Numbered from the stretch's first letter, positions 31,673 to 49,068 are shown. The stretch is DNA of 64,000 nucleotides from an uncultured delta proteobacterium (GCA_963796685.1 CAWCMR010000025.1:1152001-1216000); one strand, 5' to 3'. Program-made: numbers and translations. The notes: a model not told the origin generated them from the sequence alone.

Positions 31673-31813
31673 ATGTGGTCTCATACTCTCGCCGTGAGTG
31701 TCTGGGCCGTCATGGCTGCGGGCTGCGCCACGCAGGCAGTCTGCGACTATTCGAAGGAGCCCGATCCGCGCCGTACGGAATACGCGGTGGGGCCAGGCGA
31801 CGTGCTACGAGTC
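31673..31813 (+). pseudogene. 5' fragment of an OPX (Wza-like) paralogue cut by element A
   Basis: MWSHTLAVSVWAVMAAGCATQAVCDYSKEPDPRRTEYAVGPGDVLRV versus the intact gene MWPRTLAVCAWMITAAGCATQVAYDYSKEPDPRRSEYTVGPADVLRV. Confidence 0.85.
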
Positions 31814-31960
31814 AGGCGTGAGCAGGGACATCTAGCCTGAGGGGTGCGGGCGGAGTTTTGATCGCGTTTGTTGAGGGACAAAAGAACGAGCCCCCTCAAG
31901 AAACTTGCGAAAAGTGTCCGAGGGGGCTCGCCTCCGGGTTGCTCAGACTCGGAGGAGACC

Positions 31961-32632
31961 ATGATGCACGTTCAGCGGCTGGCAGTGGAATTCTTTGCCA
32001 TGCTCGAGAAGCTCGATGAGAAGATTGCGGCCAAGGTGGCGGCGGGTAGGTGCCGGCACTGTGATGGGCCGCTACACCAGGGGAATTACCGGCGCAAGCC
32101 CCGGGGTGGCATGATCGGGGCGACAGGGGAGGAATTCACGCGACGGCACTCTCTGTGCTGCGGTCGTCGAGGGTGTCGCAAGCGGGCGTTGCCACCGTCG
32201 CTGCGTTTTCTGGGGCGGCGGGTGTATCTGGAGGTGGTTGTGGTGTTGGCCAGCGTGATGGTGCAGGTCATGGCCACGGTACGCGCGGCCGAGGAGGCGA
32301 GCGGGGTGCCGCTGCGAACGCTACGCCGGTGGGGCAGCTGGTGGCGCGAGGTGTTTCCGATGCTGCCGACGTGGGCGGAGCTGCGGGCGCGCTTCGTGCC
32401 TCCACCGCCGGACGAGGCCCAGCTTACTTGGTCGCTGCTCGCGCGCCTCGGTGGTCAGGAATATCGCCCCGACCACAATGACGACAGGGTTGCGGACGTG
32501 AGCTCATTGCTTCTGTGCGCACGCTACCTGGCACCGGCGACGAGCGATTCCGTAGTGGCTCGCGCCAGCTCCTCTGTGTCGTCCTCGCCGGTGATGCACG
32601 TTTGGTCGAGCGTCTTCGCACCACCGAGCTGA
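31961..32632 (+). CDS. Cys-rich Zn-ribbon/HTH transposon accessory protein (C-terminus altered by deletion)
   Basis: CRHC...YRRKPRGG...CC...GCRKR..PPSLRF; RTLRRW..WWR; homologous to 43757-44347. Confidence 0.7.
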   Translation: MMHVQRLAVEFFAMLEKLDEKIAAKVAAGRCRHCDGPLHQGNYRRKPRGGMIGATGEEFTRRHSLCCGRRGCRKRALPPSLRFLGRRVYLEVVVVLASVMVQVMATVRAAEEASGVPLRTLRRWGSWWREVFPMLPTWAELRARFVPPPPDEAQLTWSLLARLGGQEYRPDHNDDRVADVSSLLLCARYLAPATSDSVVARASSSVSSSPVMHVWSSVFAPPS

Positions 32633-32934
32633 TGCCTCTCGGCAGCCGCATCCGCCGCCGCCTCGTCCTCGAATATGCATCCCGCGATGAGCTCCTCGCC
32701 TGCCTCGACCACCTCCTCGAAACCGCTGGTAATCCCACCCTCATGACCACCGAGCTCAAAGCCACCCTCGCCGATCATGCTGCCGGCAACTACCGCGTCC
32801 TCATGAATCTTGGCGATGAGCTGCTCGCACTCGCCGCCGACAAAGACCTGCCCCGCCTCGACGAAAAGCTTTTCCTGGAAGCCTTCAACCAGCAGCCACG
32901 CCCCACTGCCAAGGCGCCTGCGAAACGTCGATGA
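32560..32934 (+). pseudogene. C-terminal fragment of an ExeA-family AAA+ ATPase
   Basis: LLCVVLAGDARL...PLGSRIRRRL...AAGNYRVL; no Walker A. Confidence 0.75.
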
Positions 32935-33194
32935 TCATCGTCATTCCCCCGGACGACGATCTCTGTGTCGCCCCCGAGCTGGCTATCCTCGCCGCCCTCG
33001 AGGCCGGACTCGCCATCGCCGTCCAAGTCCTGAACATCACCCACACCGAGATCTTTGCCCCGGGCGACGACCGTCACCCGGCCAACCTCGACACCCGCGT
33101 TGCCGCAGAGATCATGGCCCAGGCCACCAGCATGATCGCCACCATCAACCGTTACCGCCGCGCTCTTCTCGACCCCGATGCCGACCCGCCCTGA
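32931..33194 (+). CDS. small acidic protein, last gene of element A
   Basis: ATGA-coupled to the ATPase stop; APELAILAAL motif. Confidence 0.65.
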   Translation: MIIVIPPDDDLCVAPELAILAALEAGLAIAVQVLNITHTEIFAPGDDRHPANLDTRVAAEIMAQATSMIATINRYRRALLDPDADPP

Positions 33195-33375
33195 CCGGGA
33201 CTCGCCGCATTCATGTCCTCGTGCGCCCCGCCAATAGATTGCTCCGCGTCCCCTCAGAAAACGTGCGCACGCTCACCGCAGAGCGCGAATTCTTCGAAGA
33301 GGGACTCCAGGGCCTCCTTCGCACTCGAGCCATGGCCCGTGGTAGGGCGGGACGGCGCCCTCCTTGCCGTCGAAG

Positions 33376-33969
33376 CTAGGGCACAATAATGATATCGCCA
33401 GGAAGGACGACGATATTCTGCTCAAGTTGCTTTCCGGTCCGGAGTTTTTCGACATCTACCGGAATCTGGCGTGGATTGCCCGATGCCGAGTCGCGGATGA
33501 TGAAAGTCTTCTCAGGGCTGGCAAAACGGTTGGGACCGCCGGCCATGGTGATCGCCTCCAGCACGGTGACGTAGTTCGTCGGCGTGAAGTTGCCACTCTT
33601 TTCGACATTGCCTGTGATGGTAAACTGGTAGCTACTGCCCGAAACCAGTGCGATGGTGACTTGCAGATTTTCGGGTTTCACAAAGCTCGCCAGGCCGGTG
33701 GCGATCTGGGCGCGGATTTTGGATAGTGGCAGGCCAGCTGCCTTGATGTCGCCGACGAGCGGCATCGTGATATTGCCATCCGGACGCACCCGAGCCTCGA
33801 TGCTCAGTTCTGGCTCACGCCAGACGTTGACCCGCAGTACGTCAGCCGGTCCCACGGTATACTCCGAGCGGCGTGGATCGGGTTCCTTCGAATAGTCGTA
33901 GGCTACCTGCGTGGCACAGCCTGCGGCAGTGATCATCCAGGCACAGACGGCTAAGGTACGGGGCCACAT
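33376..33969 (-). CDS. short OPX/Wza-family polysaccharide export lipoprotein (EpsY-like)
   Basis: Lipobox AAGC; VRPDGNITMPLVGDIKAAG PES motif; SLBB domain; ends LPGDIIIVP with no OM helix. Confidence 0.92.
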   Translation of the reverse strand: MWPRTLAVCAWMITAAGCATQVAYDYSKEPDPRRSEYTVGPADVLRVNVWREPELSIEARVRPDGNITMPLVGDIKAAGLPLSKIRAQIATGLASFVKPENLQVTIALVSGSSYQFTITGNVEKSGNFTPTNYVTVLEAITMAGGPNRFASPEKTFIIRDSASGNPRQIPVDVEKLRTGKQLEQNIVVLPGDIIIVP

Positions 33970-34103
33970 GGCGGATCAGAGTACTTGTCTTGTCGCGTGT
34001 TCGCCAGATTGATTTCGAATCCGCGTCACCGACAACCACCCGCAACACCCTTGCAACCCATGGGACGCGTAGTATCATGACTCTGCTTGGATTGTCGAAA
34101 AAC

Positions 34104-35585
34104 ATGAGTGATCGTTCTGTCTTCTCTCCGCATTTGACTACGGCCTGGTTTCTCCTTGTCTTCTGGATGGCCAGCCCCGCCAGCTGCTCGCACAGTGCCG
34201 CGTCAAACGGCGGCCAGCTAGGTGGCGGCGGAAGCGGATCTGGCAGCGCCAACGGCGGCAGCGGTGGTGCAGGAGGATCGCTGGGGAACCCAACGGATCT
34301 GTGCGCAGGTTACGCCGTCCGCTCGACCGAGCTTGTCCCCTACTCTGCGCTCCCGAAGCCGGTCCTTCTCCAGGGGGTTCAGGATCCCGACTTCCCGCTC
34401 TCGGTCATTCGTCGCATCACCGACCAGTCTGAATGGCCGGGCAACACGACCACGGTTCCGGCTTACCCGACGATCCCAGTCTGGAACGCCGACGAGTCTT
34501 TGATGGTTCTCTACGTGCAGGGCTTTGGTCACGTACTGCTCGATGGCAAGACCTATCAGTTCAAGCACCAACTCGAGATCAATCCGCCCGACTTGGAGCA
34601 CTACTATTGGGACACCCACGATCCGGACGTTCTGTATTTCGTCGCCGATCAGGCGCCGCACGTCCTCAACAAGTACCACGTGTCGACTAGCACATCCGAG
34701 GTGCTGCACAACTTTGATCCCGACCTTGCTTCGGGCGGTCAGTTGGCATCGGCCTGCGCAGGACACGATACGTCCGCGACGATCAGCGGCGGCGAAGATC
34801 CGTTCTTCATTAGTTACGACAACGACCTGTTCGGCCTGGGGTGCCGGCTGAATAGCAGCGGACCCAACGGTGCTTCCAATTTCGTTGGGTTCAGCTATCG
34901 CGTATCGACGAACCAGATCGGTAAGACCCTCCCCAACGAGGGTACTGTCCCGCAGGCGAGCCCGTCGGGACAATACGTCTACTTCTATGCCGACGAGAAG
35001 GTGACGCAGGTCCTCGATCCCATGACCCACGGGCTAATCCGCACGCTTCCGTGGGACGGCACTTCACACAGCGATCTCCTACTCAATGCCAAAGGCGAGG
35101 ACATCGTAGCGGGCGTGCAGTTCGACGGGCCGTCCGGAAGTGGCACGCTGCTCGCTGGCAACCTAGTGACTGGCAAGGTCACGACCATCATCGGACCGAC
35201 GAAGACGGGCACGGGGGATTCCTATTCGTATCCGCCGAGCGGCACGCTGGTGAGCGGAAAGGCGCTCAAGAACCCTGGATGGGTGGTCGTCGGTGTCACC
35301 GGCGATATCCAGCTGACCAAGACCTACCTCGATCAGGAGATCGTCCTTGCGGACGTCGACACAGGGGACTTCTGCCGCGTTGCGCACCACCGCAGCATCG
35401 GCAAGTGGGCGGACGGCTCGGTGGACAACTACTGGGCGCAGCCGAACGTGGTCTTCAGCCCATCGGGGACGCGAGTCGCCTTCCCGAGTGACTGGGGGGC
35501 TGCCAAGCCGGGCTCAAGCCTGAAGCCCGACGCGAACGCCCCAGTCGACGTCTACGTCCTCGAGCTTCCCAGTTACCGGCCGTAG
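34104..35585 (+). CDS. secreted beta-propeller-like protein, copy 1
   Basis: Signal, Gly linker, then PAYPTIPVWNADES...HHRS...YWAQP..SPSGTRVAFPSDW. Confidence 0.75.
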   Translation: MSDRSVFSPHLTTAWFLLVFWMASPASCSHSAASNGGQLGGGGSGSGSANGGSGGAGGSLGNPTDLCAGYAVRSTELVPYSALPKPVLLQGVQDPDFPLSVIRRITDQSEWPGNTTTVPAYPTIPVWNADESLMVLYVQGFGHVLLDGKTYQFKHQLEINPPDLEHYYWDTHDPDVLYFVADQAPHVLNKYHVSTSTSEVLHNFDPDLASGGQLASACAGHDTSATISGGEDPFFISYDNDLFGLGCRLNSSGPNGASNFVGFSYRVSTNQIGKTLPNEGTVPQASPSGQYVYFYADEKVTQVLDPMTHGLIRTLPWDGTSHSDLLLNAKGEDIVAGVQFDGPSGSGTLLAGNLVTGKVTTIIGPTKTGTGDSYSYPPSGTLVSGKALKNPGWVVVGVTGDIQLTKTYLDQEIVLADVDTGDFCRVAHHRSIGKWADGSVDNYWAQPNVVFSPSGTRVAFPSDWGAAKPGSSLKPDANAPVDVYVLELPSYRP

Positions 35586-37715
35586 CTACTGGCTCCATCA
35601 AACAAGGACAATAAGAGTTGGGCCGAAGACCGTTTCGCTTCGGCAGCACTATCTGGCCGCATAGCGATGTAACCCGCCAACAAAGTGCCAGCGTAATTTG
35701 CCTCGATTGCGACGTACAGGGGTACTCGAGTGAGCACCGCATTACGCCAGCACATTTCAGACAATGCGCGGAGGATCCGATGACGTACAATTAGCAGCGT
35801 GGTCTGTCGAGGCTACGACAGAGTCAGGTACCCAAGCAGTGAATGTAGAGTGAAAGGGCGCTGCGACAACCCAAGGAGGATTCTTTCAATGAAGTACTAT
35901 TGGCTGGCATACGCCGTTTTGAGTGTAGTGTTGCCTTCGAGCTTCGGTTGTTCGAGCGGTAGTGCCAAGACCGCGCTTTCGCCTGACAGTGGTGCTGCAG
36001 GGAGAGACAGCAGTGGGGTCGGAGGCCCTGGCACCGGCGGAAGTGGAGGTATTGGCAATACCGGCAGCGGGGGGGCAGGCGATGTTCGCGCCAGCACTGG
36101 CGAGGGCGGTGCTGGTGGGACGGGCGATGGCGGTCTTGGGGTGGTTGGTACGGGCGGGGTGGTTGGCACCGGTGGCGCGGGTGGAAGGGTTGGGACACGC
36201 GACGGCGGAATCGACGTTGGTGGCAGGGGAGGAAATGCCAGAACGGGCGATGCGGCGGGTTCCGGTGGTGCCACGGGCGGATCGGGTGGCAGCAGCCTGA
36301 GTGACGCAGGCCGGGATGGCGCGGTCGACGCGGCTTCCGGTGGATCGCTTGGTGGACAGGGAGGCCCAGTAGATTCTGCCAACGGCGGGAGCGGTGGTGC
36401 AGGAGGATCGCTGGGGAACCCAACGGATCTGTGCGCAGGTTACGCCGTCCGCTCGACCGAGCTTGTCCCCTACTCTGCGCTCCCGAAGCCGGTCCTTCTC
36501 CAGGGGGTTCAGGATCCCGACTTCCCGCTCTCGGTCATTCGTCGCATCACCGACCAGTCTGAATGGCCGGGCAACACGACCACGGTTCCGGCTTACCCGA
36601 CGATCCCAGTCTGGAACGCCGACGAGTCTTTGATGGTTCTCTACGTGCAGGGCTTTGGTCACGTACTGCTCGATGGCAAGACCTATCAGTTCAAGCACCA
36701 ACTCGAGATCAATCCGCCCGACTTGGAGCACTACTATTGGGACACCCACGATCCGGACGTTCTGTATTTCGTCGCCGATCAGGCGCCGCACGTCCTCAAC
36801 AAGTACCACGTGTCGACTAGCACATCCGAGGTGCTGCACAACTTTGATCCCGACCTTGCTTCGGGCGGTCAGTTGGCATCGGCCTGCGCAGGACACGATA
36901 CGTCCGCGACGATCAGCGGCGGCGAAGATCCGTTCTTCATTAGTTACGACAACGACCTGTTCGGCCTGGGGTGCCGGCTGAATAGCAGCGGACCCAACGG
37001 TGCTTCCAATTTCGTTGGGTTCAGCTATCGCGTATCGACGAACCAGATCGGTAAGACCCTCCCCAACGAGGGTACTGTCCCGCAGGCGAGCCCGTCGGGA
37101 CAATACGTCTACTTCTATGCCGACGAGAAGGTGACGCAGGTCCTCGATCCCATGACCCACGGGCTAATCCGCACGCTTCCGTGGGACGGCACTTCACACA
37201 GCGATCTCCTACTCAATGCCAAAGGCGAGGACATCGTAGCGGGCGTGCAGTTCGACGGGCCGTCCGGAAGTGGCACGCTGCTCGCTGGCAACCTAGTGAC
37301 TGGCAAGGTCACGACCATCATCGGACCGACGAAGACGGGCACGGGGGATTCCTATTCGTATCCGCCGAGCGGCACGCTGGTGAGCGGAAAGGCGCTCAAG
37401 AACCCTGGATGGGTGGTCGTCGGTGTTACCGGCGATATCCAGCTGACCAAGACCTACCTCGATCAGGAGATCGTCCTTGCGGACGTCGACACAGGGGACT
37501 TCTGCCGCGTTGCGCACCACCGCAGCATCGGCAAGTGGGCGGACGGCTCGGTGGACAACTACTGGGCGCAGCCGAACGTGGTCTTCAGCCCATCGGGGAC
37601 GCGAGTCGCCTTCCCGAGTGACTGGGGGGCTGCCAAGCCGGGCTCAAGCCTGAAGCCCGACGCGAACGCCCCGGTCGACGTCTACGTCCTCGAGCTTCCC
37701 AGTTACCGGCCGTAG
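34248..37715 (+). repeat. 1.34-kb direct duplication (34248-35585 and 36378-37715, offset 2130)
   Basis: Visually identical except at three positions; alternative-frame ORF translations confirm this. Confidence 0.95.
35889..37715 (+). CDS. secreted beta-propeller-like lipoprotein, copy 2 (long Gly-rich linker)
   Basis: Lipobox-like SFGC; globular domain identical to copy 1. Confidence 0.78.
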   Translation: MKYYWLAYAVLSVVLPSSFGCSSGSAKTALSPDSGAAGRDSSGVGGPGTGGSGGIGNTGSGGAGDVRASTGEGGAGGTGDGGLGVVGTGGVVGTGGAGGRVGTRDGGIDVGGRGGNARTGDAAGSGGATGGSGGSSLSDAGRDGAVDAASGGSLGGQGGPVDSANGGSGGAGGSLGNPTDLCAGYAVRSTELVPYSALPKPVLLQGVQDPDFPLSVIRRITDQSEWPGNTTTVPAYPTIPVWNADESLMVLYVQGFGHVLLDGKTYQFKHQLEINPPDLEHYYWDTHDPDVLYFVADQAPHVLNKYHVSTSTSEVLHNFDPDLASGGQLASACAGHDTSATISGGEDPFFISYDNDLFGLGCRLNSSGPNGASNFVGFSYRVSTNQIGKTLPNEGTVPQASPSGQYVYFYADEKVTQVLDPMTHGLIRTLPWDGTSHSDLLLNAKGEDIVAGVQFDGPSGSGTLLAGNLVTGKVTTIIGPTKTGTGDSYSYPPSGTLVSGKALKNPGWVVVGVTGDIQLTKTYLDQEIVLADVDTGDFCRVAHHRSIGKWADGSVDNYWAQPNVVFSPSGTRVAFPSDWGAAKPGSSLKPDANAPVDVYVLELPSYRP

Positions 37716-37919
37716 TCCGCAGCCGCGTCTCAAGCTGAGTCGAGTCGCCCTCCAGCCTTACGGGCTGGAGCGAGCCTGCGCGGGGGGCAGGAGCAATTCT
37801 GGGTAGGCCCGCGACGTCTGTCGTGACATCCAAACCAAACGCACAACAACGTGCACGCTGCACGGAAGGTCGATGTTCATCGATCCGGAGCGACAGGTTC
37901 ATCTACTTTGAGAGGGGAG

Positions 37920-38960
37920 TTAGAAAACAACGGGCTTGCGAAATAGACTGGAGAGCCGCCGAGGCAGCAGCAGCTTGGCCGCGGTCCTCACGGTGGTTCG
38001 GTCTGCGATGCCGTAGCGGAGGCTCTGCACCAAGTGGCGCGCGCCCCGAAGTCTCTGGTCATCGGCCATCGCACTGGCTGCGGCGAGGTGGGAGTAGCCG
38101 AGACGTTTCCGGAATTCCGCGTCGCTTACGAGCGACAGATCGAGTGTCTTCAGGCTTTCAAGTACCAGTAGACGCGACTCAGCTATGTCCGCCGAATATT
38201 TGTCCGACGACATCTGGTCGGGCGAATAGCGATACCGCATCAGTGGATGGTTGATAAACGCCACATCGCCCTCGCGGCTCAGGCGCAGCAGATACTCCCA
38301 GTCACTGTCCCGGCGAAACTTCTTGTCTAGCATCCCAGCACGCTGGGCCGCTTCCCGCCGGTACAATACGGTGGGCGGGTGCAGGACGTTGCCACCGACA
38401 AGTTGGCGATAGATCGCCCCGTAGTGAATGCTAACCAGTTCGGGCAAAGCGCCCATGTGCGGCAAGCCAGTGGTCCGGAACAGCTGATGGCGGGGGAAGA
38501 AACCCGCCAATCCCCCGGGCGTCCGGCCGATAGCGCCATAGCACGACGACATGTGCGAGCGATCGAAGTAGCCACTCTCGTCGAAGGCCGAGAAATCAGA
38601 TGCTATCAGCGCGCACACGGGATGTTGTTGCATAAAGGCGACCTGCAGTGCCACCTTTTCGGCATTCCACAGATCGTCAGAGTCGAGCCACGCCACGAAT
38701 TCCCCAGTACTTCTGGCCATGCCCGCGTTACGGGCGGCGGCCAGACCCTGGTTTTGCTGGCGAACGTAAATGATACGATCGCGGTACGGCTCGACAGCGC
38801 GTTCCGTGCCGTCGGTGGATCCATCGTCGACGACAATGAGCTCGATTTGCGGATAGGTCTGCGCCAAAGCACTGTCCAGGGTCTGGGCAATGACGTTCCC
38901 ACGATTGTAACTAGGCACGACGACGCTCACGATCGGATTCACAATATGTATCGATAGCAT
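37920..38960 (-). CDS. GT2 glycosyltransferase
   Basis: VSVVVPSYNR, VVDDGSTD, AARNAG and LDSDD motifs. Confidence 0.92.
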   Translation of the reverse strand: MLSIHIVNPIVSVVVPSYNRGNVIAQTLDSALAQTYPQIELIVVDDGSTDGTERAVEPYRDRIIYVRQQNQGLAAARNAGMARSTGEFVAWLDSDDLWNAEKVALQVAFMQQHPVCALIASDFSAFDESGYFDRSHMSSCYGAIGRTPGGLAGFFPRHQLFRTTGLPHMGALPELVSIHYGAIYRQLVGGNVLHPPTVLYRREAAQRAGMLDKKFRRDSDWEYLLRLSREGDVAFINHPLMRYRYSPDQMSSDKYSADIAESRLLVLESLKTLDLSLVSDAEFRKRLGYSHLAAASAMADDQRLRGARHLVQSLRYGIADRTTVRTAAKLLLPRRLSSLFRKPVVF

Positions 38961-39086
38961 GAAGCGTGGATTGTGTCAGTTTCGATCTCGCTTTTTGAGG
39001 GGACACCGAGTAGGGAAAATGAGGGGATTCCCGATACCCGTTCCCACACGCTGTAGGGGTCAGCGGGTAGCGGAATCGGGAATCAG

Positions 39087-39947
39087 CTACCCTGAGGCGA
39101 GGAGGTAGCCGGCGGCACTCTTGCGGACGCGGCCCTCAGCGACGAGGGTGGCGAGGGCATCGCAGGCGCTCTTGTTGCGGATGCGGCAGGCGGTGCGGAG
39201 GGCGGCAAGCGACAGCGGGGTGGCGGTGTCGGCGAGTGCGCGCTCGATCTTCTCGACGGGGGATGTGGCGGGCGGAGCTTCGGTGATGGCGCGAGCTTCG
39301 ATCACCCGCAGGGCGAGAGCGTCGCCATCGTTCTTGAGAGCGACGTGCAAGCCGCCGAAGGACGGTGCGGCGCGATGCTCGACGGTGAGTACGAGGTCGT
39401 CGCCGGTGCGGCGGAGATAGAGGTTGGAGTCGCCCCAGGCGTGAAATTCGGACGAGCCGCGCAGGGCCTGGCCCGCCCTGGCCTTGGCGGCGCCTTTGCG
39501 CGCATGGTGGACCAGGACCACCGCGACGGCGAGGCGACGCTGCAGCTCGCGCAGAAAGGCGAGCAGCGGGGCGACCTCGCCGGAGACGTTCTCGTCGATG
39601 CGGTGCAGGCGCACGAAAGGGTCAAGGATGAGCAGGCGGGGATGCAGGTGCTCGACGGTCTGGGCGAGGCGATCGCGATCGTCGGCTAGGTCGAGGCGGA
39701 GGACGGGTGCGGTGATGACCTGGATGTCGAGGGCATCGAGGCTGGTGCCGGCGGCAAGGGCGATGCCTTCGAGACGGCGGCGCACGATGTGCAGGGCATC
39801 CTCGGCGGCGAAGAGCAGGACCCGGCCGGACGCGGCGGGCGGGAAACGGCCGAGGCAGGGCACAGAGGCGGCGACGGCCACCGCCATGTCGAGAGCGAGG
39901 AAGGACTTGCAGCACTTGGGCTCGCCGCCGACGATGCCGACGGCCTG
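39087..39947 (-). pseudogene. AAA_25/RepA-like ATPase, 5'-truncated by element B; probable passenger of another IS21-like element
   Basis: GEPKCCKS Walker A, LILDPF Walker B, VHHARK and LRGSS; N-terminus replaced by the element B terminus. Confidence 0.75.
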
Positions 39948-40055
39948 TGTGTTGCCACGCAAACAGGCTGATGGGTTTGCGGTTCAGATAGCAGATGGGC
40001 ATCACGGAAGTGACAGGGTGGCTGTCACGTCGGTGATGCCCATCATCGGGTCGGC

Positions 40056-40280
40056 TCAGAAGCAGTCGTCGTGAGGGCCGTCGGGGACAGATTCCCAGAC
40101 GGCGTCAGGGGGCCTGGGGGTTTCGATTCCGCGTGCAGCCTGGAGGTCGGCCATGGCATCGCCGTGTGCACGCCAGATGGCGGCGATGACCCGCTCGAAC
40201 ACATCGACGAGGATCAGGGCGCAAGATGTGTCGATGGGCGGCAGGTGGATCTGAGCGTGCGGTGGCGGCGGGCGCCTCAT
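40056..40280 (-). CDS. small protein, last gene of element B
   Basis: ATGA-coupled to the ATPase; acidic C-terminus (HDDCF). Confidence 0.6.
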   Translation of the reverse strand: MRRPPPPHAQIHLPPIDTSCALILVDVFERVIAAIWRAHGDAMADLQAARGIETPRPPDAVWESVPDGPHDDCF

Positions 40281-41092
40281 GCTGCCTCCCTGGGTTCGGT
40301 ATCGACGACACGGGTGATGGCATCGCGCTCGACGAGTTTTCGCTTTCTGCGGGCGGCGTCGCGAAGGGCGGCGGTGGCGAGCCGGTCGAGGTCGCGCAAA
40401 GATCCTGCGGCGGCTTCGTGGAGCATGGCCAGGGCGTCAGCCGTGACAAGCTCGCGGTCGCAGCCTGATTGCTTGAGTCTGGAGCGAATGTAGTCGGCGG
40501 TGTCGTCCGGGGTCAGGGGCGTGACGTTGAGCCGCGTGTAAATGCGCGAGTACAAGGATCGATTGCGACGGAGGACAAGCCTGTCGGAAAGCTCTGGCAG
40601 GCCGACGAGGACGAGGGACAGGAGCGCCCTGCTGTCCCACTGGTAGTTCAGCAAAATGTGTAGGTGGTCCAGCATGTCCTGATGGAGCAGGTGCGCCTCG
40701 TCGAGGAGGAAGACCGGATGAACACGCTCGCGGCCAAGATCTTCGACGTGGGAGGAGACGGCGAAAAAGAGAGCCGCTGCGGCGGCGGAAGGCGCGAGCC
40801 CCAAGGCGAGGCAAAGCTGGCGATAAAAATCGCGGCGTCCGAGGGTGGCGTTGTGGCAGTAGGTGAGTCGGAAACCAGTTTGCGGCAGCCTGTGGCGCAG
40901 GGCACGCAGAACGCAGGTTTTACCGGCGCCGGGATCGCCGGTGAGGACGATGGAAGCACGCTCGTGGAGGGCTTCGCACAGCTCGTGTACCAGGGCCTCC
41001 TTGGAAGGCGGCATCCACAGATCGACGTCTGCTATTTCCTTGGAGAATGGGGCGCGTTCGAGGGCGAAGTGGCCGAGATAGGCGGGCGTCAT
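40277..41092 (-). CDS. ExeA-family AAA+ ATPase (transposition helper)
   Basis: PFSKEI; GDPGAGKT Walker A; LLDEAH Walker B; LVLVGLPEL. Confidence 0.9.
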   Translation of the reverse strand: MTPAYLGHFALERAPFSKEIADVDLWMPPSKEALVHELCEALHERASIVLTGDPGAGKTCVLRALRHRLPQTGFRLTYCHNATLGRRDFYRQLCLALGLAPSAAAAALFFAVSSHVEDLGRERVHPVFLLDEAHLLHQDMLDHLHILLNYQWDSRALLSLVLVGLPELSDRLVLRRNRSLYSRIYTRLNVTPLTPDDTADYIRSRLKQSGCDRELVTADALAMLHEAAAGSLRDLDRLATAALRDAARRKRKLVERDAITRVVDTEPREAA

Positions 41093-42453
41093 CGGTCACC
41101 TCCTTGTGGCGAAGGGTTTCGTCCGACAGCTCGGTCGAGCAGCACGGAAGGCGGATCGAAGGGCACCGGTCGCGAGGCTTTTGTCGCATGTCCCCCGCCA
41201 CGATTTGGACGTTTTCGCTGGGCGTTCTTGCCAGGGTCGACGGGATGCAGAGGCAACGCCTTTCCCTCGTGCTCGACCCACGGAGCTTCGCTCATGTCGA
41301 CGAGGCAACGGGCCACCATGACCAGGCGCCCTGCGAGAAAGCCCTGATCGAGCTCCCAGTCCGTACCCTCCAGTGGCAGCGTGGTGTCTCGGCGGACGCG
41401 GCGGCGCACGCGCACGGTGAGCGCCTCGCGCAGCTTGCGCTCGTCGAAGCGATCGGTGGGACGCTCGGCTGCCTCGTACACGCGCGCGGGCGAGCGGCCA
41501 AGCAGCGAAGCGTGCGGCGCCTTGTGGTAGTGCTCGTCGAGGAAGGCCCACAGCCGCACGTTGATGTCGTGTAGCGACGATACCTGGCCGAGAAAGTCGA
41601 TACACCCCTGGCGCAGGGTGCGCCAGAAGCGCTCCATCTTTCCACGCGCCTGCGGGTCGTAGGGACGCGCGTGCAACAGGGAGACGCCCATGCGCGCGCA
41701 AGCCGTGGACAAGATGTCGCCGCGATAGGTACTGCCATTGTCGAGGTACAAGGCATCCGGTGGCCCATGTCTGCGCAGGGCACGCACAAACATCCCCAGC
41801 ATGTCCACCTCGCGCTCGGTGTGGTGCGCTTCCAGCGCGATGATGAAGCGGGAGGCATCGTCGAGCAGTCCGTGAATTCGCACCGGCATGTTTTTACCGC
41901 CGACCGAAATCGCCGGGCCATAACAGACATCGCCGTGCCAGAGCGCCCCAGGCCGCTCTGCTTCCCAGCGCAGCCTGGTCTTCGGCCCCTTGCCATCGCG
42001 CATGGGAATGCGGTCCAGCCCCTCGTCGGCGAAAAGTCGCCGCACCGTCGAGGCCGACACCGCGTCCTTGCTCAATCGCCCGTCGACGGTCAGGGTGCGA
42101 AGGATCAAAGGCACCGAAGCCGAGGGATGCTCACGCCGGATGTCGCACAGAAGCGTGCGCTGCTCCGCTGTCAGCTCCTGCGCGCGTCCACTGTCGCTGC
42201 GGGGCTCGGGGCGCAGGGCATCTAGGCTTCCGGCCTTGTAGGCGTAATACCAGCGCTCCAGCGTCGGAACCGAGAATCTGCGCGTGCTGTCCGCTCCCGG
42301 CGGCCGGTAGCGCTCGGCGGCCAGATCTTTCAGCGTCGCCGCCAACTCTCCGTGGTCGAGATCTCGTCGGGTGAGTGCGCCGACGATTTCGCTGCGGAAG
42401 ATGGCTACCTCCTCGGCATGGTCCTTGGGCTTCAGGCTTTGTAGGTCGGTCAT
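41089..42453 (-). CDS. DDE (rve / Mu-like) transposase
   Basis: LWHGD, LLDDASR, YLDNGS and GKMERFWRT motifs; N-terminal HTH (TLERWYY). Confidence 0.92.
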   Translation of the reverse strand: MTDLQSLKPKDHAEEVAIFRSEIVGALTRRDLDHGELAATLKDLAAERYRPPGADSTRRFSVPTLERWYYAYKAGSLDALRPEPRSDSGRAQELTAEQRTLLCDIRREHPSASVPLILRTLTVDGRLSKDAVSASTVRRLFADEGLDRIPMRDGKGPKTRLRWEAERPGALWHGDVCYGPAISVGGKNMPVRIHGLLDDASRFIIALEAHHTEREVDMLGMFVRALRRHGPPDALYLDNGSTYRGDILSTACARMGVSLLHARPYDPQARGKMERFWRTLRQGCIDFLGQVSSLHDINVRLWAFLDEHYHKAPHASLLGRSPARVYEAAERPTDRFDERKLREALTVRVRRRVRRDTTLPLEGTDWELDQGFLAGRLVMVARCLVDMSEAPWVEHEGKALPLHPVDPGKNAQRKRPNRGGGHATKASRPVPFDPPSVLLDRAVGRNPSPQGGDR

Positions 42454-42581
42454 GGTGTTGTCATGGTGTCCCTTCTGCAACCGCGGTGTGCGATGCACGT
42501 AAAGCCATGCTTCATTCCGGCCGTGCCTGGCAGGGATCTTCGCGGGTGGGCGAAGTCCCAGCGACGGGAAAAGTCTGATGG

Positions 42582-43214
42582 TCATCGCATAGCGAGCGCT
42601 GCTCCTTGGAAAGCCCGCGTTGCCACAGACGCCTCGCCCGAAGGCGGCGGCCCGAGTGAAGCCAGTCCCAGCGCCGCCCGCTCAGCCGCCTGCCGTGCGG
42701 TGAAATCCGAAGGCGCAGCACGTAGTCCGGACAGCAGCGTGCGCGCACGAATGGCCCGAATCCACCGTCGCAACGTGGCCCAGCCGGTGATGGCGGTCTG
42801 GCCGATGATCGTCCGCGGGCTCGTCTGTCGCCGCACTTCCGCAATGGACAATTTCTGCACCCCGAACAAGGCCAACGCCCACCCGACCGCAGACGATGAG
42901 TAAAGCCGCCCAGGAATCGTCTCGCAAGGAACCACGGTGAGCACGGCGCCACACCGGCAAAGAAAGCGACGGACGAGCAGCAAGACCATCTTGGGCACTT
43001 GCCCCGGTCCTGGCGGTCCCAAGAACTGTCTCTCGCGCAGCCCATGCCCGATGATCCCAAGCCTCGCTCCCGGCGGACAGCCAGCTCGTCCACATACAGG
43101 GCAGGTACTCGGTCTCAGCATGTCCACACCCGGCATTGCCACCAACCACAGCTTGACCCCGACCTTGCCGTGCACGATTGTCTGAAGCGCTCCGTTCCTC
43201 TCGTTTCCTTTCAC
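42582..43214 (-). CDS. Zn-ribbon/HTH accessory protein (DUF6431-like), first gene of element B
   Basis: CPVC...GHGLRERQ...RRFLCRCG; WATLRRW; start uncertain. Confidence 0.7.
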   Translation of the reverse strand: MKGNERNGALQTIVHGKVGVKLWLVAMPGVDMLRPSTCPVCGRAGCPPGARLGIIGHGLRERQFLGPPGPGQVPKMVLLLVRRFLCRCGAVLTVVPCETIPGRLYSSSAVGWALALFGVQKLSIAEVRRQTSPRTIIGQTAITGWATLRRWIRAIRARTLLSGLRAAPSDFTARQAAERAALGLASLGPPPSGEASVATRAFQGAALAMR

Positions 43215-43434
43215 GTCGGGTGCGGAGCACGACCAGGCAGGGCGGTGGCTACGCCCTCCTGGTCACCTACATAGCTGCGGCCAGCGACATGCCGATGCTC
43301 CTCCTTTCCCTGCCGCCACTACCCTGATTCCCTGCCCGTGGCCATGGCCATCTCCACGCCGGGAATGATGGCGATTGTCCAAGCCATGCCATCACCGATA
43401 CCGCGCGATCTCCCGCCGCTCAGCAGCACTCACA

Positions 43435-43663
43435 CCGCCTCGGAACAGCCACGGGCCGCGTACAGCCAGCGCTCCAGTGTCGAGAAACCGAATTGCACGG
43501 GCGCGTCCGTGATCGGGTGCCGCCACGGCTTGCTCGCCAATCGTTTCAGCTCTTCGCAAAGCTCGCCCCGCGAAGGCGGCGCCGCCAAGAGCGGCCCGAT
43601 GATGGAAAAGCGCAGGTATGCCCAGCGCGCGTGTCGGCTTCCTTCGTCCTTGCCATTGGCCAT
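43435..43663 (-). pseudogene. N-terminal fragment of the element C transposase
   Basis: WAYLRFSIIGPLLAAPP..GEL...STLERWLY, similar to the N-terminus of 41089-42453; cut at the element B end. Confidence 0.8.
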
Positions 43664-43756
43664 CGTCTCCAACTCCTCTTTCCCGGATTTACCGGGGTGA
43701 TGGGCATGGATACCGCGCCAGGTCGCGATGGTTTGGACATCTTCTGCGGGCCGGCT

Positions 43757-44347
43757 TCACCCCTCGAAAAGCCAGTTTGCCGTCGCCGTCTTGGTCGTGA
43801 CCGGCGCGAGAAAGCGCAGGGCCGCGACCAGTTGCTTCTCCTCGTCGCCAGCAAAGCGGGCCCAAAGCGAGCCAGGCAGCGTCGACGCCACCGGCGCAGG
43901 CGGCGCCAGCAGTCCCTGCGCCGCCTTCCAGAACCGGCTCCCGGCGAAGTCCCCCCGCCACCACGCCTCCCACCGTTTCAGCGTCCGCAGGCTCACCCCG
44001 ACCTGCTCGCGCAACCGCCTCCATTGCAACACCGAGAGCGCGCCTCGCAGCCCGCTGGTCACCACGAACACCGGCGCAAGAAAGACCCGGCGTCCGAAGA
44101 ACCGCACCGACGGCGGCGTCACCCTCCGCCGGCAGCCCTCCCGCGCGCAACAGAAGCTATGCCGCGACCTGAACGCCGCGCCGATCTCACCGGGACCTCC
44201 GCGCGGCTTGCGCGGGTAGCGCGCGCTGTGCAGGCGCCCCCCGCAGCGGCACCCCGCCGCACGGGCATCGGCAGCCAGCTGATCATCGATTTGCTGGAGT
44301 CGGATGTAGAAACGAACCTCTTGCAACAGGGCCACAATCCGTGGCAC
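43757..44347 (-). CDS. Cys-rich Zn-ribbon/HTH transposon accessory protein
   Basis: CRCGGRLHSARYPRKPRGG...SFCCAREGCRRRVTPPSVRF; RTLKRW..WWR. Confidence 0.75.
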   Translation of the reverse strand: MPRIVALLQEVRFYIRLQQIDDQLAADARAAGCRCGGRLHSARYPRKPRGGPGEIGAAFRSRHSFCCAREGCRRRVTPPSVRFFGRRVFLAPVFVVTSGLRGALSVLQWRRLREQVGVSLRTLKRWEAWWRGDFAGSRFWKAAQGLLAPPAPVASTLPGSLWARFAGDEEKQLVAALRFLAPVTTKTATANWLFEG

Positions 44348-44490
44348 ACGGGTCTCCTCTCGTCTTCTTGGTCGAAAACGAGAGGAGAGACCCTCTCGGG
44401 GCGGCTTTCAAGCTCTCCGAGGGGGTCTTGCTTTTTCCCTCACGTACCGTGACCGCGGAACCCGGACTAACCCCCTACGCTACGTGCTTA

Positions 44491-45826
44491 GGAACCGCTC
44501 GAAGATAACGCTTGAAGGTGGGTGAGCAAGTTTTTCGCTTCTTCCTTCGATTTCTGCTCTTTGATGGAGGATGGCGAGAAGCGATGACGTCGCACGTCTC
44601 CGGACGAAATACGAAATGTTGCGTGGCGTACTGAACGAGCGCACACGAAGGCTCTGGGCTGCCACAGAAGCAGACGCAATCGGCTTCGGCGGCATCAGCC
44701 GGGTGGTCGAGGCCACGGGATTGAGCTGGCCCACGGTCGTGAAGGGACTTGGCGAGTTGACCGAGCAGCGCGACAGTGGCACGGTTCTGCCGCCCGATCG
44801 GATTCGTCGCCCCGGCGGTGGCGATAGGCAGCTCAAGGACAAAGACCCAACGCTGCTTCCGGATCTCGACGCACTGGTGGAGCCAGCCACGAGGGGTGAC
44901 CCGGAATCGCCGCTTCGATGGACGTGCAAGAGCACGAGGAAGCTCGCCGAGGAATTGGCGAAGCGGGGACACAAGATCAGTCCGCAGACTGTGGCCGAAT
45001 TGCTCAAGGAGCAGGGGTACAGTCTCCAGGCCAACCGCAAGACGAGGGAGGGCAAGTCGCAGCATCCCGACCGCAATGCACAGTTCGAGCACATCAACAG
45101 CCAAGCCAAGCTTTTCGAGAAACGTGGACAGCCCGTGATCTCCGTCGACACCAAGAAGAAGGAGTTGGTCGGCGACTACAAGATGGCCGGCCGGGAGTGG
45201 TGGCCGGAAGGCCAGCCCGAGATAGTGCAGATGCACGACTTTCCGGACCCGCGCGTGGGCAAAGCCATCCCCTACGGTGTCTACGATGTAAACAGCAATG
45301 AGGGCTGGGTCAACGTCGGTATCGACCACGACACCCCCGACTTCGCGGTCGCGGCGATCCGGGCCTGGTGGAAACACATGGGGGCGCAGCGCTACCCGTA
45401 CGCAAGCGAATTGATGATCACGGCCGACAGCGGCGGCAGCAATGCCGCTCGTTCTCGGGGCTGGAAAATGGCCTTGCAGAAACTCGCTGACGAAATTGGG
45501 CTCCGCATCACCGTCTCGCACTTTCCGCCCGGCACGAGCAAGTGGAACAAGATCGAGCACCGGATGTTCTGTCATATCTCGAAGAATTGGCGAGGACGTC
45601 CGCTGCTCACGCACGACGTGGTGGTGAACCTTATCGCGAACACGACTACACACACCGGACTGACCATCAAGGCGAAGCTCGACAAGCGCTCGTACCCTAC
45701 AGGCAACGTAGTCACTGACGCCGATTTTGACGCCCTCAACATCAAGCTCGCCGAATTCCACGGCGACTGGAACTACGTCCTGGCGCCAAGTGTCTCAACT
45801 TAGAAAATCTATCTTCGAGCGGTTCC
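44491..45826 (+). mobile_element. ISAzo13-family insertion sequence
   Basis: Perfect 17-bp IRs GGAACCGCTCGAAGATA / TATCTTCGAGCGGTTCC; TTA target duplication. Confidence 0.93.
44571..45803 (+). CDS. ISAzo13-family transposase
   Basis: RGDPESPLRWT, HPDRNAQF, ISVDTKKKE, TADSGGSN and PPGTSKWNKIEHR motifs. Confidence 0.95.
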   Translation: MARSDDVARLRTKYEMLRGVLNERTRRLWAATEADAIGFGGISRVVEATGLSWPTVVKGLGELTEQRDSGTVLPPDRIRRPGGGDRQLKDKDPTLLPDLDALVEPATRGDPESPLRWTCKSTRKLAEELAKRGHKISPQTVAELLKEQGYSLQANRKTREGKSQHPDRNAQFEHINSQAKLFEKRGQPVISVDTKKKELVGDYKMAGREWWPEGQPEIVQMHDFPDPRVGKAIPYGVYDVNSNEGWVNVGIDHDTPDFAVAAIRAWWKHMGAQRYPYASELMITADSGGSNAARSRGWKMALQKLADEIGLRITVSHFPPGTSKWNKIEHRMFCHISKNWRGRPLLTHDVVVNLIANTTTHTGLTIKAKLDKRSYPTGNVVTDADFDALNIKLAEFHGDWNYVLAPSVST

Positions 45827-45843
45827 TTAGGCTCATCGGCGGC

Positions 45844-47501: not shown

Positions 47502-49068
47502 GGGTGTTGATCTTACCCTGACGTGAAAACTCGAAGAAACACAAAGGGAGGGAATGTCCGCGAAACGAAAGAGGTTTTAGACATACCATGCACCTGAATG
47601 TTGTTGCCAGGAACGAAGCACACACCCAAGGACAGAAGGCCCCAATGTCGGTCGCCAAACTGCGAGCAATCTTGGAAGATGCGGGGATGCGAAAGAAGGG
47701 GCCCAAGGAGACCTTCGAGACATTCGAGAAGCGTCTCCACCAGCAGCTACAGGAGGTCGAGCGCGATTTGTTGGCCGAAGAGTTGGAGCGTGCCGACGTG
47801 GACGCGGATGCCATCGTGGTCGAGGGGACCGGATACCGGCGAGTCTTGCGCGCGGCTCAAACGTACATGACCGCCGCCGGGCCAGTAACCGTCGAGCGAG
47901 CGCTCTTCAAGGACCGAAGCAACGACCACGAACCCTGCATCGTGCCGCTGGACTTGAAGGTGGGGGTGGTCGATGGCTTCTGGACGCCGATGGCGGCCCA
48001 GCAGGCGACCTGGGTGGTATCGCAAATGACTCCGCAGACCGGCGAGGAGCTTTTCAAGAGGGTGGGCAACATGACGCCCTCGAAAAGCAGCTTGGACCGG
48101 CTGCCGAAGCGATTGGCCGAGCGGTGGAATGACGACCGGAAGGAGTTCGAGAAGGTTTTGCGCGAAGGGATGACCATCCCCGAGGAGGCGGTCACGGTGA
48201 TGGCGAGTCTCGACGGAGTGCTGGCGCCCATGAAGGATGGAGGCGCGGCGGATAAGCGTGCGGAGACCGCCGCACGCGGGCATATCGCGAAGGGCCCCGC
48301 TGGCTATCGCGAGGTTGGATGCGCGACGCTTGGTTTTTGCGACCGAAATGGAAGACTTCTGGCGGCGGTGCGCATGGCAAAAATGCCCGAGCCACACAAG
48401 GCGTCGCTCAAGGAAGCCTTGAAGGCGGAATTGGACATGGCGTTGTCGCTGCGTCCCGACCTGCAACTGATGAAGGCCGCCGACGGGGCAAACGACAATT
48501 GGACGTACTTGCACAAGGAATTGCCCAAGGGGTCGGAGGTGGTGGATTTCTTCCACGCAGCGGAACACCTGAACACGGCCTTGGCCTCTGCCTACGGCGA
48601 TGGCACGGTCGAAACGCAACGGCGATTCAACGACCTACGGCACGTGCTGCTGGAAGAGGAAGGCGGGGTCAAGAAGGTGATTCGGTCACTGATCTACCTT
48701 CGGGAAAAGCACCCGCACAGCAAACACATTCCAACCGAATTGGCGTATTTCCGAAAATACCAGAAGCGCATGCGTTACGCGGAAATGAAGGCACAAGGTC
48801 TGCCCATCGGGACCGGGGTCATGGAAGCCGCATGCAAGACCTTGGTAACGCAGAGAATGAAACAAAGTGGAATGCGCTGGGGCAAGCAAGGTGGCCAAGC
48901 CATCTTGAATCTACGGGGCTGGGCGCAAAGCGAACGATTCGACCAAGCCTGGGCTCTGCTCGCCGCCACCTACCGAGTCGCGATTACCGTCCTCAATGAC
49001 GTCGTTTCAATTCGCTCGGCCCGCCTTTGAAACCCACGGATTTTCACGCCAGCATGAGAGCTACACCG
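47502..49068 (+). mobile_element. ISKra4/UPF0236-like insertion sequence
   Basis: Imperfect IRs GGTGT...CTG.CGTGAAAA; target duplication TTAACTTT (47494-47501 and 49069-49076). Confidence 0.85.
47588..49030 (+). CDS. ISKra4-like (mutator-type DDE) transposase
   Basis: SLDGV, ADGA..NW, DFFHAAEHL and PIGTGVMEAACK...RMKQSGMRW motifs. Confidence 0.88.
   Translation: MHLNVVARNEAHTQGQKAPMSVAKLRAILEDAGMRKKGPKETFETFEKRLHQQLQEVERDLLAEELERADVDADAIVVEGTGYRRVLRAAQTYMTAAGPVTVERALFKDRSNDHEPCIVPLDLKVGVVDGFWTPMAAQQATWVVSQMTPQTGEELFKRVGNMTPSKSSLDRLPKRLAERWNDDRKEFEKVLREGMTIPEEAVTVMASLDGVLAPMKDGGAADKRAETAARGHIAKGPAGYREVGCATLGFCDRNGRLLAAVRMAKMPEPHKASLKEALKAELDMALSLRPDLQLMKAADGANDNWTYLHKELPKGSEVVDFFHAAEHLNTALASAYGDGTVETQRRFNDLRHVLLEEEGGVKKVIRSLIYLREKHPHSKHIPTELAYFRKYQKRMRYAEMKAQGLPIGTGVMEAACKTLVTQRMKQSGMRWGKQGGQAILNLRGWAQSERFDQAWALLAATYRVAITVLNDVVSIRSARL

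Follow-up and report, generated by a model that had tools for sequence, protein, structure and literature searches.

Nested Tn6049-family transposons in a polysaccharide locus of an uncultured delta proteobacterium

Introduction

Why does a single extracellular polysaccharide (EPS) locus hold three versions of one four-gene transposon within 14 kb, and what might the genes that accompany the transposase do? The question is raised by a 64,000-nucleotide stretch of DNA from an uncultured delta proteobacterium (GCA_963796685.1, CAWCMR010000025.1:1152001-1216000), hereafter the window, whose positions are counted from its first letter. The long open reading frames (ORFs) between 31.8 and 45.8 kb are genes of mobile elements, three of which we call A, B and C. 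The initial annotation of this DNA described them as three independent, divergent copies of a poorly characterised Mu/Tn7-like element, and it proposed that a leading Cys-rich protein selects the target, that a trailing small protein acts as a regulator, and that the clustering reflects target preference. The explanation that we favor, and to which we assign a probability of about 0.6, is that the three are nested elements of the Tn6049 family, with an ATPase that would act like MuB, a zinc protein that would bind the element's ends or promoter, a fourth gene that would be linked to replication, and a locus that tolerates insertions.

Results

Element B is mobile and intact

A second copy of element B is present on contig C9 of the same genome, where it matches window positions 39948-43447 with 99.17% identity over 3,500 columns, and at least five copies that are 93% identical to B, with differing flanks, occur in one other genome. 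The alignment of the flanks of five copies from the two genomes fixes the termini of B at 39950 and 43447, and contigs from independent soil metagenome runs stop or diverge precisely at these two positions. The four-gene order and the TG...CA ends described in the initial annotation are confirmed, while its limits of 39948-43434 move to 39950-43447 on the evidence of the C9 copy and the 93% copies. The terminal sequence is TGTT on the 43447 side and AACA on the 39950 side, and all four ORFs are open in both the window copy and the C9 copy.

The C9 copy is flanked by a 4-bp duplication (CATG), and two copies in the other genome (loci L013 and L014; loci are designated by L and a number) by the 5-bp duplications GCTCG and CTCGG. 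The window copy is without a target duplication and is bordered on its two sides by different parts of element C; none of the window copies of A, B and C shows a duplication because their flanks are rearranged. Repeats of the TGATGG type stand at fixed distances from the termini in seven B-type elements. All seven contain 3-9 GATGG/CCATC motifs in the terminal 260 nt, against 0.5-1.7 expected, at conserved positions and at both ends. A longer 13-mer, GGTGATGCCCATC, shows no enrichment, with three matches in the window against 2.26 expected; only the shorter GATGG core, at the conserved end positions, is enriched. The palindrome inside the downstream end of B (Table 1) is retained with altered letters in L021 and L018. 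No excision or circle junction was found among the contigs of four public runs over positions 39600-43800, and rare forms are invisible to contigs.

The best transposase model for the B DDE protein is the NCBIfam IS481 model (NF033577; 177 bits, under the cutoff of 224), and the nearest solved sequences in the PDB are retroviral integrases for this protein (E 2e-4) and Cdc6 for the ATPase (E 1e-3). The DDE ORF in the window overlaps the stop codon of the zinc gene owing to 11 extra bases near 42449, and this overlap is peculiar to the window copy because the insert is absent from the C9 copy, from the copies of the other genome and from two metagenome contigs. Similarity to related transposases begins near Met45 (~42453), which is probably the true start. 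The start/stop overlaps between the transposase and ATPase genes and between the ATPase and small genes are kept in both B copies and in Tn6049. The small fourth gene is conserved in L013, L018 and L021, and its 74-residue product matches no Pfam family. A complex prediction for the transposase and the ATPase, with the zinc protein as partner, scored 0.72, 0.00 and 0.00 in three runs without controls, which speaks neither for nor against binding.

Three further observations concern relatives of B. Contigs from a soil metatranscriptome run (X7) are 90-95% similar to all four B genes (window 40054-43447); this is compatible with, but not proof of, expression of a B-related element, as RNA libraries can contain DNA. 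In a metagenome-assembled genome (MAG) other than the host's, an IS21-type element encoding IstA and IstB lies within the zinc-protein gene of a B-type copy (L016, 1717-5997), with a 5-bp overlap at B coordinates 384-388. The identical IS21/B junction recurs in L017 but with a different upstream part, which points to rearrangement between B copies.

The elements are related to Tn6049

A tblastn search of plasmids with the zinc protein of element C led to Cupriavidus records, including a locus on pMOL30 that is Tn6049 and whose four genes stand in the same order as those of the window elements. In the sections of the literature consulted, Tn6049 of Cupriavidus metallidurans CH34 is described as 3.5 kb long, present in 12 copies and carrying an ATPase gene named 'gspA' (PMC2864759), and on the Pseudomonas aeruginosa plasmid pHS87a it has 12-bp imperfect inverted repeats and a 4-bp repeat (PMC4739549). 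We compared the window proteins with those of the pMOL30 locus by BLASTP. The zinc proteins of A and C are each 43% identical to that of Tn6049, the N-terminus of the C transposase 62% and the ATPase remnant of A 65%. For B the identity is 26% for the DDE protein (E 3e-30) and 27% for the ATPase (E 6e-16), and its zinc protein has no similarity to that of Tn6049 detectable by BLASTP. Judged by these comparisons, A and C belong to the Tn6049 type, both in a decayed state, and the intact B belongs to a distant sister lineage. Apart from the B zinc protein, the proteins are homologous to those of Tn6049, the genes lie in the same order on one strand between TG..CA ends, and short duplications and multiple copies are found; A and C retain the family gene order wherever it is undeleted. 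The three elements do share one layout, as had been noted, but A and C belong to one lineage and B to another.

The zinc protein of C, which is of the Tn6049 type, has 3556 homologues, and a profile of the B zinc protein finds at least 1000 representative clusters. The loci used to assess synteny were recruited with the zinc protein, so the presence of the zinc gene is given by construction. Where the contig leaves room, the DDE gene follows the zinc gene in 30 of 31 B-type and 60 of 64 Tn6049-type loci, and the ATPase gene follows the DDE gene in 22 of 22 and 40 of 41, respectively. We also searched in reverse, from the ATPase. Among 20 such loci the zinc gene is detectable in five, three are 5'-truncated and one has no DDE gene; the remaining 11 have a distant DDE gene (26-36% identity), and tblastn detects no zinc protein in them. 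Of the 11, one (L159) has an upstream Cys-rich ORF whose motifs, judged by eye, stand in the same order. The core of the family is a zinc-ribbon/helix-turn-helix (HTH) protein of the DUF6431-like kind, an IS481-like DDE transposase, an AAA_22 ATPase and a variable fourth slot, and its ends have TG..CA termini, inverted repeats that are short and imperfect, and several TGATGG-type repeats in subterminal position. The gene and domain content bears out the earlier view of a DDE transposase and an AAA+ ATPase led by a Cys-rich DNA-binding protein in a poorly characterised class.

Element B is inserted in element C

The B terminus at 43447 truncates the transposase gene of C after about 75 codons, as the initial annotation recognised in describing one element as cutting another. 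At the other end, B adjoins an AAA_25 gene that reads as an ORF from 39087 to 39962 and lacks its first ~25 codons. In 18 metagenome elements a gene of this kind comes after the ATPase, the closest of them being 57-73% identical to the one in the window, and a palindrome with GGAAAC/GGAACC repeats follows AAA_25 in 12 of 13 related elements (the contig of L064 ends before it). Because relatives carry AAA_25 and the palindrome after the ATPase, element C extends past B to about 38960 or 38974. The sequence of C beside B is short by ~2.2 kb: B inserted into the C transposase gene, and then ~2.2 kb of C next to B was lost. Element C was correctly seen as a partial, divergent relative with its outer end at 45835, but its extent is larger than the 43435-45835 first given, as it continues beyond B. 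No target duplication was found for C, whose inner terminus is narrowed to one of the two positions only. The insertion sequence (IS) of the ISAzo13 type inside the outer end of C has 21-nt inverted repeats that are 95% complementary (44487-44507 and 45810-45830) and a possible TTAG duplication. The start of a GT2 glycosyltransferase gene (37920-38960) lies at or within ~15 bp of the inner terminus of C, on the same strand as the C genes, and the gene may by now rely on read-through, or else on a promoter within the C end.

Element A has lost its DDE gene and the N-terminal half of its ATPase; its limits, 31819 and 33275, agree with the terminal sequences, and its reading as a partial relative holds. 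The family of its fourth gene is common to both lineages. Internally deleted derivatives that keep the zinc gene and a 3' part (the ATPase C-terminus or AAA_25) and have lost the transposase occur in both lineages (L035, 6001-7026; L101; and A in the window), and they may be non-autonomous elements.

Table 1. Features of elements A, B and C in the window.
Feature	Coordinates	Strand	Basis
Element A, internally deleted Tn6049-type element	31819..33275	+	Termini TGAGC...GCTCA
Left flank of A, start (47 codons) of a Poly_export paralogue truncated by A	31673..31818	+	72% identity to N-terminus of 33376-33969
A gene 1, zinc-ribbon/HTH protein	31961..32632	+	Similar to the zinc proteins of C and Tn6049
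A ATPase remnant, C-terminal ~113 residues	32515..32934	+	Similar to Tn6049 ATPase residues 156-268
A fourth gene, 87-aa protein	32931..33194	+	30% identity (E 1e-7) to L097, 33% (E 3e-7) to B-type L031
Element B, intact 3.5-kb Tn6049-family transposon (sister lineage)	39950..43447	-	TGTT...AACA termini; copies in two genomes and metagenome contig breaks
B gene 1, 210-aa zinc-ribbon and HTH-like helical protein, divergent DUF6431 relative	42582..43214	-	Family motifs and structure model
B gene 2, DDE transposase (HTH_32 and rve)	41089..42585	-	Pfam rve 6.5e-14, HTH_32 8.9e-11
B gene 3, AAA+ ATPase (AAA_22, ExeA-like)	40277..41092	-	AAA_22 2e-25; start overlaps DDE stop
B gene 4, 74-aa acidic protein, Asp-rich stretch and Phe at end	40056..40280	-	Translation; start overlaps ATPase stop
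Palindrome, inverted TGATGG-type half sites	39994..40044	.	23-nt arms, 91% complementary; RNA fold z -5.9; inside B downstream end
Element C, decayed AAA_25-type Tn6049 relative enclosing B and ISAzo13-like IS	38960..45835	-	Inner terminus 38960 or 38974
C gene 1, 196-aa zinc-ribbon/HTH protein	43757..44347	-	Similar to Tn6049 first gene, E 1e-33
C gene 2 remnant, first ~75 DDE transposase codons	43448..43672	-	Similar to Tn6049 transposase residues 10-74; cut by B end
C fourth-gene remnant, AAA_25 (RecA-fold, RepA/DnaB-like)	39087..39949	-	AAA_25 4.8e-28 from profile position 33; adjoins B
Palindrome 3' of C AAA_25 gene	39026..39084	.	20-nt arms, 80% complementary
ISAzo13-like IS (transposase 44571-45803)	44487..45830	+	NCBIfam ISAzo13 583 bits; 5 bp inside C outer terminus

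The zinc-ribbon/HTH proteins form two families

The zinc proteins of A and C are 40% identical to each other, and neither has BLASTP similarity to that of B. Across 40 homologues of the B protein the motifs CxxC...CxC, GHG and TLRRW are invariant; 12 of these 40 match DUF6431 (PF20020; best E 3e-7) and six match Zn_ribbon_ISL3, and in the Tn6049-type family 19 of 45 members match HTH_23. A relationship to DUF6431, which had been put forward for checking, is seen for B at the level of the family, but not for the window proteins themselves. The Atlas neighbours of the B and C proteins are DUF6431(+HTH) clusters in which 14-74% of the members carry PF20020, and we take them as leads only. The AlphaFold2 model of the B protein (predicted local distance difference test score, pLDDT, 88.3) has a beta zinc ribbon followed by a helical domain; the model of the C protein has a pLDDT of 68.3. 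A Foldseek search with the B model gave no PDB match at E<=0.001, although an absent match does not exclude a fold, and VIA-align gave weak matches to HTH and NrdR-ribbon structures, the best of them (Z 4.3) to HTH proteins. A profile comparison of the two families by hhalign gave a probability of 2.3% (E 0.021) with a colinear order of motifs; common ancestry was considered on this basis and is not demonstrable.

The fourth slot is variable

The content of the slot after the ATPase differs between relatives. Among 41 metagenome relatives with a complete ATPase gene, 34 Tn6049-type loci have room for a further gene, and in 18 of these it is AAA_25. Fusions of DnaA_N with AAA_25 were found in five of five tested loci, four of them above the DnaA_N cutoff, and in L131 the gene encodes a CHC2 zinc finger of the DnaG type. 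Other elements have a small acidic protein, which in nine of 11 cases ends in Phe after an Asp/Glu-rich stretch, a protein of a ~90-aa family, or a member of one of two further families without a Pfam match. The three window elements carry three different cassettes: the acidic Phe-ended protein in B, AAA_25 with its iteron-like palindrome in C and the ~90-aa helical protein in A. The trailing small gene, for which a role as regulator had been proposed, is not a conserved regulator; the slot holds an exchangeable cassette that varies across relatives and often has replication-related domains.

Insertion sites have no common sequence

Of eight Tn6049 insertions, seven have duplications of 4-7 bp (CTATCG, TATGG, CTGC, CACG, TTCCAGG, ACAC and CGATGT) and one has none, and the eight lie in unrelated genes, including those for an RND pump, a type IV secretion coupling protein and an oxidoreductase. 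The duplications of B-type elements (CATG, GCTCG, CTCGG, ATTGG, GGCCC and ACACG) have no consensus. In most metagenome contigs the sequence runs out at the element or close to it. An automatic end finder applied to 32 Tn6049-type and 17 B-type loci found clean TGTT ends with a 5-bp duplication in five B-type loci only, and the flanking ORFs of six other B-type loci have no Pfam match. Copies of B in the other genome are found within a few kb of each other, next to or within IS21 and tyrosine-recombinase (RIT) elements.

The C9 copy of B lies inside a single spacer of a CRISPR array, and the spacer without the duplication measures 34 nt, the commonest length in that array. The copy flanked by CTCGG has its duplication at the centre of a palindromic CRISPR repeat. 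The array on C9 (89586-100538, L009) comprises 105 identical 37-nt repeats with spacers of 32-38 nt, and the B copy is its one interruption; near-duplicate neighbouring spacers are found at ~97988-98096.

The initial annotation took the cluster as a sign of target preference. This is not supported, given the absence of a shared sequence or gene among the eight Tn6049 and the resolved B-type insertions, the spread of duplication lengths, and the presence of unrelated ISAzo13-, ISKra4- and ISL3-type elements at the same locus. A region that tolerates insertions explains the accumulation better than targeting does, because unrelated IS families cluster there as well. Dead elements within the locus would then serve as neutral landing sites.

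The surrounding locus

The host, a soil myxobacterium, has a genome of 7.3 Mb at 64.6% GC, and the closest protein matches of the window are labelled Polyangia or Myxococcota. Domain annotation around the elements includes Poly_export/SLBB, three GT2 glycosyltransferases, two acyltransferases, a methyltransferase, a deacetylase and a flippase, in keeping with the polysaccharide setting named at the outset, and the flanks have 60-62% GC against the 64.6% of the genome. This locus is broken repeatedly by mobile DNA. The whole genome holds five members of the Tn6049 superfamily: two copies of B, A, C and a degraded pair on contig C14 (~105800-107800, L010). This last is a distant DDE and AAA_22 pair (28-34% identity to B) with the DDE gene split over two frames, beside which tblastn finds no zinc-protein gene. 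To the right of the studied region an ISKra4-like transposase (47588-49030; 168.7 bits, under the NCBIfam cutoff of 205) and an ISL3-like transposase (49310-50404; 197 bits, over the cutoff of 180) stand back to back and add to the IS load of the locus. Between A and C, two adjacent plus-strand genes (33990-37715) encode proteins of 531 and 638 aa whose C-terminal ~430 residues are identical, which indicates a recent tandem duplication of ~2.1 kb; both proteins have Gly/Ser-rich N-terminal regions, and neither matches a Pfam family.

Discussion

Around the mobility, ends, end repeats, duplications, gene order and domain content described above, a mechanism can be proposed by analogy with better known elements. 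The DDE protein would bind the repeated end sites and join the 3' CA ends to staggered positions of a target. Like MuB, IstB or TnsC, the ATPase would form a platform on DNA, under the control of ATP, which brings in the target and activates the transposase. The zinc-ribbon/HTH protein may be a detached DNA-binding module of the transposase type that recognises the element's own ends or promoter; it would act as an assembly factor and/or as a repressor in the manner of InsA of IS1, and not as a site-specific target selector. The cassette in the fourth slot could link the strand-transfer or copy-out intermediate to host replication. The acidic tails ending in Phe recall the C-terminal pattern of single-stranded DNA-binding protein (SSB). 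We put forward, as a tentative idea, that the fourth slot holds interchangeable replication adaptors, which either hand the intermediate to the host replisome or supply a helicase-like loader of their own. If this were the case, then a very common family of transposons would complete its transposition by self-directed replication, and the window would show three of its adaptors together.

Several observations weigh against this explanation. With regard to the ATPase and transposase, the MuB-like role is inferred by analogy while the sequence of the ATPase is nearest to Cdc6, and no solved MuA, TnsB, TnsC, MuB or IstB is among the PDB sequence matches of the B DDE protein and ATPase. The zinc proteins of A, B and C have no Pfam match themselves, and the profiles of their two families align poorly. 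For the fourth slot, the link to replication is drawn from domain names and from the SSB tail pattern; 18 of 26 scanned fourth-slot proteins have no Pfam family, and in the L022 and L026 lineages only ~90 bp follow the ATPase. Three of the five family members of a 7.3-Mb genome lie within 14 kb, two B-type insertions with resolved flanks are in CRISPR arrays, and a purely neutral view accounts for these two facts only via selection. Furthermore, the literature searched contains no functional test of any of the four proteins.

An alternative explanation is that the zinc-ribbon/HTH protein does nothing more than repress transcription of the operon, as a brake on copy number that stays outside the transpososome. 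Its gene is the first, immediately downstream of the end where the promoter must lie, the C-terminal half of the protein is HTH-like, InsA of IS1 and the Mu repressors provide precedents, and the internally deleted A, L035 and L101 have all kept the gene. However, ISL3 transposases carry this type of zinc ribbon at their N-terminus, as part of the enzyme (six of 40 homologues match it), and the TGATGG-type repeats stand at both ends and not at the promoter end alone. The retention of gene order in 60 of 64 and 30 of 31 loci does not discriminate between these readings because the loci were recruited with the zinc gene. We regard a role confined to repression as unlikely.

The target selector of the initial annotation is quite improbable. 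According to it, the Cys-rich protein would work like TniQ/TnsD through the ATPase, and the cluster would mark a preferred target in or near the locus. It is true that a zinc-binding DNA-binding protein, as TniQ is, is kept beside the DDE and AAA+ pair in both lineages, that three of the five members in this genome share 14 kb, and that the B-type copies of the other genome lie close to each other and to IS21/RIT elements. Nevertheless, none of the three Cys-rich proteins matches TniQ in Pfam even at E<=10, and no TniQ or TnsD is among the fold matches of the B protein, of which the best has a Z of 4.3. The zinc gene is located upstream of the transposase and not after the ATPase, the eight Tn6049 insertions lie in unrelated genes, the duplication sequences of both lineages are unrelated, and unrelated IS families cluster in the same locus.

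Least probable is that the elements aim, via the ATPase and/or a replication-type fourth module, at DNA structures such as hairpins, cruciforms or replication intermediates: the two CRISPR insertions, the position of B inside C and of other copies beside IS21/RIT elements, and the DnaA_N, AAA_25 and DnaG-finger domains of the fourth slot are in line with this idea, but the CRISPR cases are only two, from related genomes whose arrays are very long (105 and at least 67 repeats), Tn6049 inserts in ordinary genes, and an excess of surviving insertions in arrays and dead elements arises from purifying selection by itself. A structure- or replication-directed preference is kept alive by the CRISPR cases and the 14-kb clustering only as a minor rival.

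Under the explanation that we favor, namely nested Tn6049-family elements in a tolerant region, the locus is a well-resolved nested set of transposons of a known kind. Its AAA_25 gene and its 'hypothetical' Cys-rich genes should be annotated as transposon parts. Element B, compact at 3.5 kb, apparently intact and carried by a harmless soil bacterium, offers a convenient test object for a family that is very common yet without a described mechanism.

Comparison with known systems

The initial annotation allowed that an element of this type might already be described together with the functions of its accessory genes. The type does have a name, Tn6049 being its sole named member, and its mechanism is poorly characterised: in the sections consulted, a 2018 paper states that Tn6049's transposition module 'could not be categorized' (PMC6210171), and the literature searched on Tn6049 assigns no functions to its proteins in the parts consulted. 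The accessory functions are without description in the literature searched, which contains nothing relevant on combinations of IS481, ATPase and zinc proteins. The window elements resemble Tn6049 in having a small Cys-rich 'transposase', an IS481-like DDE protein, an AAA ATPase ('gspA') and a small acidic ORF between TG..CA ends with ~12-bp imperfect inverted repeats and short duplications. They differ from it in that C has an AAA_25 gene and a palindrome where Tn6049 has the small ORF, and in that the small ORF of A belongs to another family.

The B zinc-protein family overlaps with DUF6431 (PF20020), and its gene likewise adjoins that of a DDE-type integrase; in the consulted part of PMC12323340, a DUF6431 gene adjoining such an integrase is listed for a Ruminococcus gnavus contig. 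In contrast to this likeness, the window proteins lie below detection by the Pfam model, and DUF6431 is itself a family without a described function.

Among simple insertion sequences, IS481 is the nearest: it provides the best transposase model, and its duplications also vary in length. TGT/ACA ends, which the window family has too, are noted for IS481 and for Tn7-like elements in the sections consulted of PMC11406308. However, the score lies below the cutoff, and IS481 encodes one protein, whereas the window family adds the zinc-ribbon/HTH protein, the AAA+ ATPase, the fourth cassette and several subterminal repeats.

With Mu, the Tn7-like elements, Tn5053, Tn552 and IS21 the family has in common a DDE transposase with a nucleotide-binding helper and TG..CA ends with multiple internal sites, and several B-type copies share the 5-bp duplications of the Mu/Tn7-like group; with Tn552 there is also a resemblance in the sizes of the proteins. 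Unlike in that group, the duplication length varies from 4 to 7 bp, and there is no TnsA and no resolvase. Pfam finds rve, HTH_32 and AAA_22 only, with no match to the Mu-transposase, TnsC, TniB or TniQ domains, and the IS21 IstB model gives the B ATPase 25 bits against a cutoff of 200. The family would work like the Mu/Tn7/IS21 scheme but falls outside the Mu, Tn7-like/Tn5053 and IS21 groups as well as outside strict IS481. This places the Tn6049-family elements between simple insertion sequences and the regulated transposons of the Mu/Tn7 type.

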